64,000 nucleotides of DNA from Escherichia coli (GTDB taxonomy: Bacteria; Pseudomonadota; Gammaproteobacteria; Enterobacterales; Enterobacteriaceae), in NCBI RefSeq assembly GCF_045037415.1, contig NZ_CP173438.1, one strand, 5' to 3'. Numbering within the stretch: the first letter of the stretch is position 1; every line of letters begins with the position of its first letter. The position numbers were made by a program, and so were the translations under genes. Shown piece by piece: positions 26,420-28,049 of the stretch. The notes under the pieces are model-generated. The model worked only from the letters and a program-made list of their open reading frames with translations. It ran no database searches and had not been told where the DNA came from.

Positions 26420-28049
26420 TTATTCTTGCTCCAGCATCGCATTCACCCACGCGTCGAGGTTGGCGAAGGTCGGTTTGGACGCCAGATGCAGCAGCTTACG
26501 CCCGGCGTCCACCGCCAGCAGCGTCGGTTTGCCGCCTGCCTGCGCCACCAGCACAGTGCGCACGCATTCCAGCAAAGAATGTTCCGCCCGCGCCTGCTGT
26601 TCCATGGCGTTGGCTAGCGGGTCCATCAGGCAGTAGCAGATAAACACGCCTAAAAACGTCCCCACCAGAGCCGCCGCCACTTTCAGGCCAATCAGAGCGA
26701 TAGATCCATCAATCGACTGCATGGTGATGATGATGCCCAGCACCGCCGCGCAAATACCAAATCCCGGCATCGCTTCGGCGGTACGTTGCAGCGAGCGCGA
26801 CGGCGTTAACAGGGACTCTTCCGCGGTGTCCAGTTCCTGATCGAGAATGCCTTCCAGCTCATGGGCGTCGATTTTACCCATCGCCATCAGGCGAAAGTTA
26901 TCAGCAATAAAGGTCACCAGCCGCTTCTGGGTTAACACCAGCGGGTATTTCTGGAAAATGGTGCTCTCTTCCGGCTGCTCAATATGCTGATCCAACATCC
27001 GCAGACCGCCGTTTTGCACCATTTCGAGCAACTCATACAGGCACATTAATAGCTGACGCTGAAACTCCGGCCCGAGCTGTTTTTTACTGATCACGCCTTT
27101 AATTTGATGGGCAATCTCTTTCAGCACATGTTTCGGGTTACCAATAATCATCGCCCCGAAACCGGCACCCAAAATAATGATCATTTCCGCCGGTTGCCAG
27201 ATAGCCACTAATTGCCCGCCCGCTTCAAAATAACCGCCAAATACGCAGCCGAGCACCACCAGTAAACCTAATATTTTTTGGGTGATGCTGCCAACTTACT
27301 GATTTAGTGTATGATGGTGTTTTTGAGGTGCTCCAGTGGCTTCTGTTTCTATCAGCTGTCCCTCCTGTTCAGCTACTGACGGGGTGGTGCGTAACGGCAA
27401 AAGCACCGCCGGACATCAGCGCTATCTCTGCTCTCACTGCCGTAAAACATGGCAACTGCAGTTCACTTACACCGCTTCTCAACCCGGTACGCACCAGAAA
27501 ATCATTGATATGGCCATGAATGGCGTTGGATGCCGGGCAACAGCCCGCATTATGGGCGTTGGCCTCAACACGATTTTACGTCACTTAAAAAACTCAGGCC
27601 GCAGTCGGTAACCTCGCGCATACAGCCGGGCAGTGACGTCATCGTCTGCGCGGAAATGGACGAACAGTGGGGCTATGTCGCGCCAGCGCTGGCTGTTTTA
27701 CGCGTATGACAGTCTCCGGAAGACGGTTGTTGCGCACGTATTCGGTGAACGCACTATGGCGACGCTGGGGCGTCTTATGAGCCTGCTGTCACCCTTTGAC
27801 GTGGTGATATGGATGACGGATGGCTGGCCGCTGTATGAATCCCGCCTGAAGGGAAAGCTGCACGTAATCAGCAAGCGATATACGCAGCGAATTGAGCGGC
27901 ATAACCTGAATCTGAGGCAGCACCTGGCACGGCTGGGACGGAAGTCGCTGTCGTTCTCAAAATCGGTGGAGCTGCATGACAAAGTCATCGGGCATTATCT
28001 GAACATAAAACACTATCAATAAGTTGGAGTCATTACCTATTTTTTGCAT
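26420..28049 (-). pseudogene. lafT: Lateral flagellar motor protein MotA homologue, interrupted by IS1 after codon 4
   Basis: ATG CAA AAA ATA at 28049-28038, IS1 at 28037-27278, duplicated codons 2-4 at 27277-27269, remainder of MotA-like ORF to 26420. Confidence 0.8.
27278..28037 (+). mobile_element. insAB: IS1 copy (insA 27336-27611; insB with 11-bp internal deletion)
   Basis: IS1 termini; 9-bp target duplication TATTTTTTG on both sides; 760 bp as printed. Confidence 0.9.

Follow-up and report, generated by a model that had tools for sequence, protein, structure and literature searches.

A transposase-dead IS1 element at the start of the Flag-2 stator gene lafT in Escherichia coli ST131

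Introduction

An IS1 element lies at the very start of a motA homologue in the 64,000-nt stretch of Escherichia coli DNA analyzed here (hereafter the window). The locus raises the question of whether this is a genuine transposition event, what such an event would mean for the interrupted gene and its neighbor, and how an IS1 copy that is itself 11 bp too short came to lie there. A sequence-only reading of the window had proposed that the element interrupts lafT after codon 4, disabling lafT and acting in a polar manner on lafU, and that the element is a variant form of IS1. Here, we examine these proposals and trace both the insertion and the deleted IS1 form across complete E. coli genomes and plasmid sequences.

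Results

Identity of the interrupted gene

The interrupted gene is lafT, the MotA-type stator gene of the Flag-2 (secondary, lateral-type) flagellar cluster. Taking out IS1 and one of the flanking repeats in silico yields an uninterrupted 287-aa ORF of the MotA family, and the restored protein scores 375.5 bits on the MotA model TIGR03818 (cut-off 303.8) over residues 1-281 of 287. The genomic context agrees with this assignment. The co-oriented lafU ORF scores 579.6 bits on NF005273, the ORF directly upstream encodes a FliA/WhiG sigma factor (lafS; 445.4 bits on NF009091), and dinB is located downstream. As it stands in the window, lafT is no longer an unbroken reading frame translatable from its own ATG.

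The wider locus has the layout of Flag-2, with the three clusters lfh/lfi, lfg and laf located between the fadE-side genes and dinB. In the near-identical and colinear ST131 strain 4433, the PGAP annotation runs in the order dinB, lafU, motA, IS1, a fliA-type sigma factor, fliL, fliK, fliS, fliD, lafA, flgL...flgB and flgAMN. Further along the same locus, the annotation includes fliJIHGFE, a sigma-54 activator and fliMNPQR. All other Flag-2 ORFs in the window have the expected lengths, and lafT is the sole visibly broken Flag-2 coding sequence there.

Structure of the insertion site

The inserted element has the hallmarks of the IS1 family, namely inverted repeats, a 9-bp target duplication and identity to the reference IS1 (Table 1). 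Its length corresponds to the 768 bp of a full IS1 minus 11 bp. The 23-bp terminal inverted repeats, GGTGATGCTGCCAACTTACTGAT on the left and GGTAATGACTCCAACTTATTGAT for the reverse complement of the right end, match at 18/23 positions. The direct repeats flanking the element, TATTTTTTG, are perfect, and the duplicated target is exactly codons 2-4 of lafT on the minus strand. Read on that strand, the locus begins with ATG (28049-28047) CAA AAA ATA, continues with IS1, and resumes with CAA AAA ATA TTA GGT. The lafT ATG and its ribosome-binding site are now 766 bp away from codons 2-287. Sequence extraction bore out the coordinates, the 9-bp duplication and the in-frame restoration that had been claimed for IS1 in lafT. 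The minus-strand reading, together with the TIGR03818 match and the lafS/lafU context, likewise upheld the placement after codon 4 of a motA homologue. The rebuilt empty site of 735 nt is 100% identical to the uninterrupted locus of ST131 strain EC958 and of many ST131 genomes.

Table 1. Features of the interrupted lafT locus and of the IS1 copy used for comparison, with positions in the window.
Feature	Position	Strand	Remarks
Left 9-bp target-site duplication, TATTTTTTG	27272..27280	.	Minus strand CAA AAA ATA, joined to the lafT body
IS1 in lafT, 757 bp	27281..28037	+	insA and insB are encoded on the + strand, opposite to lafT
IS1 left inverted repeat (IRL)	27281..27303	+	Abuts the lafT body; holds the ATC "start" called by PGAP (27286-27284)
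insA, intact	27336..27611	+	Encodes the 91-aa zinc-finger/HTH IS1 repressor
A6C (AAAAAAC) programmed -1 frameshift motif of IS1, intact	27587..27593	+	
11-bp deletion junction	27677..27681	+	Placement ambiguous within the 3-bp microhomology TCG
insB C-terminal part, 129-aa ORF from GTG	27633..28022	+	
IS1 right inverted repeat (IRR)	28015..28037	+	Abuts the orphaned first four lafT codons
Right 9-bp target-site duplication, TATTTTTTG	28038..28046	.	
Orphaned lafT 5' end, ATG CAA AAA ATA	28038..28049	-	Read-through into IRR gives a 30-aa peptide
lafT body (MotA homologue), codons 2-287 and stop	26420..27280	-	Severed from start codon, ribosome-binding site and upstream operon
lafU (MotB homologue)	25494..26417	-	ATG 2 nt past the lafT stop; expected target of polarity
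lafS, FliA-type sigma-28 factor	28062..28778	-	Directly upstream of lafT; stop 12 nt before the lafT ATG
Comparison IS1 (hsdS copy), 768 bp	11087..11854	-	Inserted in a type I restriction hsdS gene; 8-bp duplication GAAGGTTA

The IS1 copy in lafT

The window contains a further IS1 copy, located in an hsdS gene, against which the lafT copy had been compared. Pairwise alignment of the two copies revealed one 11-bp gap and two substitutions, and no other difference. This supports the variant status of the lafT copy and confirms that its insB lacks 11 bp present in the copy at 11087. The alignment also revealed two SNPs that had been overlooked, and it removes an "extra GAT" that had been read near the left end. 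Both copies are identical over their first 397 nt in the pairwise as well as the three-way alignments. The hsdS copy extends one base further than the end at 11853 given previously. The SNPs are located at IS1 positions 444 and 486, with G in the hsdS copy and T in both the lafT copy and IS1A. The hsdS copy is a full-length IS1A carrying T444G and T486G, and encodes a complete 232-aa InsAB'. The lafT copy has 0 mismatches to IS1A of K-12 over 757 aligned bases and is devoid of IS1 nt 398-408 (TCGGGGCTAAA).

The lafT copy is a transposase-dead but InsA-proficient member of the IS1 family, defective and non-autonomous. It retains insA, both ends and the A6C frameshift signal. The family is characterized by insA and an insB' frame that fuse at A6C into the 232-aa DDE transposase InsAB', and it is this fusion that the lafT copy fails to encode. 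Because the 11-bp deletion truncates InsAB', with a stop after 124 aa following the -1 frameshift compared to 232 aa in the hsdS copy, no transposase can be produced. The truncated product keeps the first catalytic D and loses the aspartate of TDGW and the glutamate of IERH, which are two of the three DDE residues. The deletion moves the distal part of insB into the frame of insA, yet the insA stop codon lies between the two. Consistent with this interruption, NCBIfam model NF033558 matches the transposase of the lafT copy as two separate pieces. Further movement of the element could occur only if another IS1 supplied transposase in trans, and the intact hsdS copy is a possible source.

Consequences for lafT and lafU

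Translation from the native lafT start now produces MQKI followed by residues encoded by the right end of IS1. On the other side of the element, the in-frame lead into the lafT body from the IS1 left end reads TAA GTT GGC AGC ATC ACC, placing a TAA five codons upstream of the junction. No canonical start codon (ATG, GTG or TTG) was found between this in-frame TAA and the GTG at codon 9 of the lafT body. At the IRL, a search of the lafT strand for outward sigma-70-like promoters was negative, and the only site found there was the inward promoter of IS1 itself. The lafT::IS1 allele is predicted to be null. The Shine-Dalgarno sequence of lafU lies within lafT. Because lafU starts just past the end of lafT and no promoter of its own is evident, lafU would likely be silenced by IS1 polarity and the loss of translational coupling. 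Rho-dependent termination takes place within IS1 in both orientations. The GTG at codon 9 has a weak AGGT 6 nt ahead of it, and some N-terminally truncated LafT might be made given a transcript out of IS1.

It is reasonable to expect both proposed effects, inactivation of lafT and polarity on lafU. However, the insertion may have no phenotype, since Flag-2 was not expressed and provided no motility in the ST131 strain EC958 (PMC4637896). EC958 has an uninterrupted lafT, LafA is undetected in this strain, and its fliC mutant is non-motile despite an untouched Flag-2 locus (PMC4637896). The insertion probably has little phenotypic effect. Given the lack of Flag-2 expression in this related strain, the insertion most likely belongs to the neutral erosion of a cryptic locus and can serve as a handy marker of the lineage. 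As a counterpoint to neutral decay, the expression data stem from a single strain under laboratory conditions, and Flag-2 is otherwise not obviously decayed in the window.

Distribution and annotation of the insertion

The filled site is present in 55/5,426 complete E. coli genomes, all of which carry the ST131-type flanking allele, and several carriers are labeled O25b:H4-ST131. A 1,501-nt query spanning both junctions was recovered at 100% identity in genomes among the matches listed, and a 961-nt query retrieved 53 genomes with at least 99.9% identity. The empty site (735 nt) occurs in about 1,300 of the 5,426 complete genomes. A complete IS1 with a matching duplication at the same site in 55 genomes is far beyond chance. 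A pathogenicity island that has come up in the context of subclade C2 strains is named after one carrier, Ecol_AZ146 (PMC8097792), which is no more than a lead to the subclade of the carriers.

The insertion is of a familiar, ordinary type and has been catalogued before. In an ISMapper survey of IS1 sites across 95 ST131 genomes (Alvarez-Fraga et al. 2022, mBio; PMC8764528), Dataset S1 lists it in 4/95 strains (HVM1299, HVM3017, S118EC and S119EC). No mention of the lafT site was found in the main text of the study. The sequence of EC958 from 304216 onward reads ATGCAAAAAATATTAGGT, uninterrupted, and positions 304219-304227 (CAAAAAATA) are the same target as in the window.

Automated annotation obscures the event. 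In carrier genomes, PGAP sets no pseudogene flag and instead reports a "flagellar motor stator protein MotA" of 288 aa (WP_029700697.1). The first codon of this protein is the ATC inside the IS1 inverted repeat, and the protein starts with MTQKILG... Because PGAP calls an intact MotA from the ATC in IRL, gene-content analyses miss the disruption. Pangenome or presence-absence studies using PGAP calls would score lafT as present and intact in carriers. Exact-protein look-ups recovered the IS-fused MotA product of PGAP in at least 1,000 contigs. A GTG-start truncation of lafT, presumably called by other gene finders, was found in 572 contigs, and the 129-aa ORF specific to the deleted IS1 in 588 contigs.

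Spread of the 11-bp deletion

The deleted form of IS1 is not restricted to lafT. We searched for the deletion junction using a 51-mer probe designed so that intact IS1 cannot seed a match. The identical junction was found at 417 places in 269/5,426 genomes, with 282 of the 417 places located on plasmids. In PLSDB, the junction is present at 281 places on 224 plasmids of Escherichia, Klebsiella, Salmonella and Shigella. Strain 164 alone has nine copies of the deleted IS1, of which seven are chromosomal and two are on plasmids. Ten other places were sampled, with the target duplications of several loci read off a MAFFT alignment. Five of the ten places have their own 8-9-bp target duplications. 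Three of these lie within genes (a GmrSD-domain gene, an LptF/LptG-family permease gene and an RHS gene), one is upstream of csgD and one is between ydhS and ydhR. The five places without a clean duplication consist of three plasmid sites (two identical sites adjacent to iutA and one beside a colicin-like gene) and two chromosomal sites.

The 11 deleted nucleotides are the second unit of an imperfect tandem repeat, GGGGCTATGTC followed by GGGGCTAAATC, with units identical at 9/11 positions. The alternative contraction product, in which the second unit is kept, is found at 24 places in 19 genomes. The existence of this alternative product indicates that the repeat tract is a recurrent deletion hotspot. 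Furthermore, the ST131 genome NZ_OY019088.1 contains an intact 768-bp copy, identical to IS1A, at the same lafT site with the same orientation and duplication. These two observations, the alternative contraction product and the intact copy in lafT, led us to drop a single origin of the 11-bp deletion as a certainty. No specific description of an IS1 with this deletion turned up in a literature search. The widespread deleted form of IS1 and the tandem-repeat hotspot generating it are the slightly unusual features of the case.

Discussion

Very likely, IS1 genuinely transposed into lafT near its 5' end, within Flag-2 of E. coli ST131, and the resulting allele was then inherited clonally by a sublineage. 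IS1 cut its AT-rich target, lafT codons 2-4, with the usual 9-bp stagger. The start codon and ribosome-binding site of lafT were thereby left on one side of the element and codons 2-287 on the other. The lafT body, preceded in frame by a stop codon in the IS1 end, would be null, and IS1 polarity combined with the loss of translational coupling would silence lafU. The allele would then have been passed on clonally within the ST131 sublineage.

Two readings challenge this scenario, and both fare poorly. The insertion might be an assembly or printing artifact, for instance a collapsed IS1 copy misplaced in the contig. IS copies are indeed a frequent cause of misassembly, and the three IS insertions of the window do not occur together in any complete genome of the collection. 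Yet the junctions are precise and include the 9-bp duplication, the identical structure recurs in 55 independently sequenced complete genomes, and the short-read ISMapper analysis places an insertion at the same site in 4 further strains. We consider an artifact hardly credible. The insertion might also be genuine but not null, with lafT and lafU expressed from an IS1-borne or hybrid outward promoter to produce a functional or altered stator, starting from the ATC inside IRL called by PGAP or from the GTG at codon 9. IS1 ends can reportedly form hybrid promoters in some contexts (Prentki et al. 1986). The duplication regenerates codons 2-4, which keeps everything in the gene after its ATG in frame with the IS1 end, and PGAP predicts a 288-aa MotA beginning with MTQKILG... 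The AGGT 6 nt upstream of the codon 9 GTG could serve such a start, and IS1 upstream of afaA, inserted in the same orientation, raised the afaA transcript in ST131 (PMC8764528). The IS1 in lafT is antisense to the gene though, unlike the activating same-orientation cases of that study, and the search of the lafT strand turned up nothing resembling an outward promoter. The reading frame is equally unfavorable, with the in-frame TAA five codons before the junction, no ATG, GTG or TTG until codon 9, and no Shine-Dalgarno sequence ahead of the ATC. ATC is an extremely weak initiator in E. coli, which speaks against its use here. A start at codon 9 would cost about half of transmembrane helix 1 of MotA. 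Residual expression of a working stator seems very improbable on these grounds, and the predicted null allele remains our preferred reading.

How the lafT copy acquired its deletion is more evenly contested. IS1 may already have been defective on entering lafT, mobilized in trans by an intact IS1, possibly from a copy on an IncF plasmid; we rate this as close to an even chance, on the lower side. The occurrence of the same junction at hundreds of places in the genomes and on 224 PLSDB plasmids, the five sampled sites where deleted copies have their own 8-9-bp duplications, and strain 164 with its chromosomal and plasmid copies all argue for a deletion preceding the insertion. The deleted copy is also present on plasmids of the same R/S strain series as several carriers (e.g., NZ_CP107152.1). 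Experiments have demonstrated that InsAB' can act in trans on immobile IS1 copies as well as on mini-IS1 (PMC12903888). The skew of 417 versus 24 places (17:1) over the alternative contraction product suggests copying rather than recurrent mutation alone. Against an already defective inserter, the IS1 transposase prefers to act in cis (PMC12903888), and NZ_OY019088.1 has an intact copy at exactly the lafT site. In addition, the deleted copies are found on at least three IS1 SNP backgrounds, which fits recurrent deletion too. The deletion may instead have arisen in situ, after an intact IS1A entered lafT in cis, by slipped-strand contraction of the tandem repeat or by gene conversion from a different deleted copy, with subsequent inheritance by most of the lineage. 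This order of events is quite plausible, while falling short of an even chance by more than a shade. The full-length copy in NZ_OY019088.1, with the same site, orientation and duplication, is what such a history would leave behind, and the lost 11 nt are exactly one unit of a tandem repeat identical at 9/11 positions. The alternative product at 24 places in 19 genomes, the identity of the lafT copy to IS1A outside the deletion, and the cis preference of the transposase, which favors an intact inserter, point in the same direction. However, the intact form is found in only 1/55 genomes, and the same deleted form is widespread outside ST131. The lone intact copy in NZ_OY019088.1 could also stem from gene conversion by another IS1 or from repeat-collapsing read polishing during assembly.

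A broader and rather speculative interpretation, which we regard as improbable, is that the 11-bp-deleted IS1 is a successful non-autonomous derivative (encoding InsA only and retaining intact ends). Such a derivative, whether generated repeatedly at the hotspot or mobilized in trans, would have spread on IncF plasmids through Enterobacteriaceae, and its accumulation could act as a natural brake on host IS1 activity. If so, each deleted copy would supply the InsA repressor and a 124-aa DNA-binding truncated InsAB' without any transposase. The copy in lafT would be one footprint of that spread.

The importance of the finding is modest. The lafT::IS1 allele is a clean, PCR-typable marker of a large ST131 sublineage (found in 55 complete genomes and, by exact-protein look-up, on more than 1,500 contigs). 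The allele also adds to a picture in which insertion sequences are wearing down a cryptic Flag-2 locus in this pandemic clone. The 11-bp contraction in insB is a recurrent route to transposase-dead, InsA-encoding IS1 copies, which may be relevant for counts of "active" IS1 copies.

The locus can be placed among several known systems. The Flag-2 clusters of E. coli 042 and of ST131 strain EC958 (Ren et al. 2005; Totsika et al. 2011; Kakkanat et al. 2015, PMC4637896) represent the same cluster at the same place by dinB. They share the lafS-lafT-lafU order at the distal end, and the flanks in the window are 100% identical to EC958. In contrast to the window, lafT is uninterrupted in EC958, and the window also has an IS1397 between lafB and lafA. 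The ISMapper record (PMC8764528) concerns the same gene and the same position, EC958 304218-304227, 12 bp from the gene start. That record is a table row though, obtained with short reads blind to the 11-bp deletion, and the consequence for lafT and lafU is not addressed. Erosion of flag-2 by insertion sequences is common across Enterobacterales (De Maayer et al. 2020, PMC6993521), with 25 distinct transposase genes, some of the IS1 family, located inside flag-2 loci and disruptions of single reading frames. The genes named as most prone to disruption are lfgF and lfiG, whereas lafT is not mentioned as disrupted.

For the element itself, the closest reference is IS1A of K-12 MG1655 (NC_000913.3 19796-20563), which shares the same 23-bp imperfect inverted repeats, insA, the A6C motif and the 9-bp target duplication. 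The lafT copy differs in its InsAB', which ends at 124 aa rather than 232 aa and, of the DDE triad, lacks the second D and the E. An intact pair of ends combined with the loss of the element's own transposase is also the configuration of the immobile IS1 copies and mini-IS1 cassettes that were mobilized by InsAB' in trans (Ord et al. 2025, PMC12903888). Those elements were K-12 copies and engineered constructs at raised transposase levels, whereas the lafT copy is a natural variant with a mobility deduced from its distribution alone. By analogy, mobilization in trans would be the behavior expected of the 11-bp-deleted IS1.

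Masking of the lafT disruption by automated annotation

The lafT gene broken by IS1 is presented by PGAP as an intact MotA of 288 aa (WP_029700697.1; positions 19521-20387 of locus L001). The start codon chosen is a non-canonical ATC at 27284-27286 of the window, which lies inside the IS1 inverted repeat. Public contigs bearing this exact protein number at least 1,000, so the break in lafT is hidden by automated annotation.

Contraction of the insB repeat in IS1 copies

The 11 bp missing from the IS1 copy in lafT (copy B) fall in an imperfect tandem repeat of insB, which is complete in the second IS1 copy of the window (copy A; see table). 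Natural IS1 copies include both one-unit contractions of this repeat, with one product at 417 places vs 24 for the other. Contraction of the insB repeat appears to be a recurrent route to transposase-dead IS1 copies. Among the genomes carrying IS1 in lafT, a single ST131 genome (NZ_OY019088.1, 4012390-4013361) carries at that site, flanked by the same duplication, a full-length 768-bp copy identical to IS1A; in the remaining 54 carriers found, the IS1 has the 11-bp deletion wherever checked. The full-length copy could represent the ancestral state, a product of gene conversion or an artefact of polishing. In NZ_AP022482.1 (764812-766647), a gene next to lptG that is annotated as an LptF/LptG family permease is also split by an 11-bp-deleted IS1, which has a target duplication of its own. 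The gene lptF is essential in K-12. If the split gene is lptF, either the strain has to make up for its loss in some way or the annotation misleads.

Features of the window discussed in the text
Feature	Window position	Description
IS1, copy A	11087-11854	full-length; IS1A with 2 SNPs; 8-bp duplication GAAGGTTA
hsdS homopolymer	12504-12512	A9 in window, A8 in strain 4433
insB imperfect 11-bp tandem repeat	27669-27684 (copy B); 11531-11552 (copy A)	GGGGCTATGTC/GGGGCTAAATC; IS1 nt 389-410
IS1397 (PGAP name), IS3 family	32560-33991	1,432 bp; 3-bp duplication TTT
REP/BIME-like repeats	33992-34220; 45038-45195; 61814-61896	~85-150 nt; mutual identity 88-91%

Other insertions in the window and at Flag-2

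Flag-2 in the window contains a second insertion sequence besides the lafT IS1. IS1397 is located between lafB (fliD) and lafA, where a REP palindrome (GCCGGATAAGGCGTTT/TTTACGCCGCATCCGGC) holds it in its loop. Intergenic regions with REP/BIME-like repeats number at least three in the cluster, and one of these repeats is the IS1397 target. Only two complete genomes of the collection share the IS1397 site, and in one of these, NZ_OZ040716.1, lafT is uninterrupted, hence the two insertions were independent events. Copy A breaks hsdS, which encodes the specificity subunit of the type I restriction-modification system that the thrW-adjacent island carries. The site is empty in most ST131 genomes, and IS1 is present there in only two complete genomes of the collection. 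The homopolymer in hsdS is the sole difference between the window and strain 4433 across 20.7 kb, and could stem from an error in sequencing, from another frameshift or from phase variation in tract length.

IS1 also lies upstream of lafT, at a distance of a few tens of bp, in the unrelated pig isolate PEC389 (NZ_CM168012.1). There lafT is intact, all of Flag-2 upstream of it is gone, and a RelE/StbE-family toxin gene and dpaA lie next to the remnant. The arrangement looks like an IS1-bounded deletion leaving only lafT-lafU, unlike the classic K-12 deletion with its lfhA/lafU remnant.
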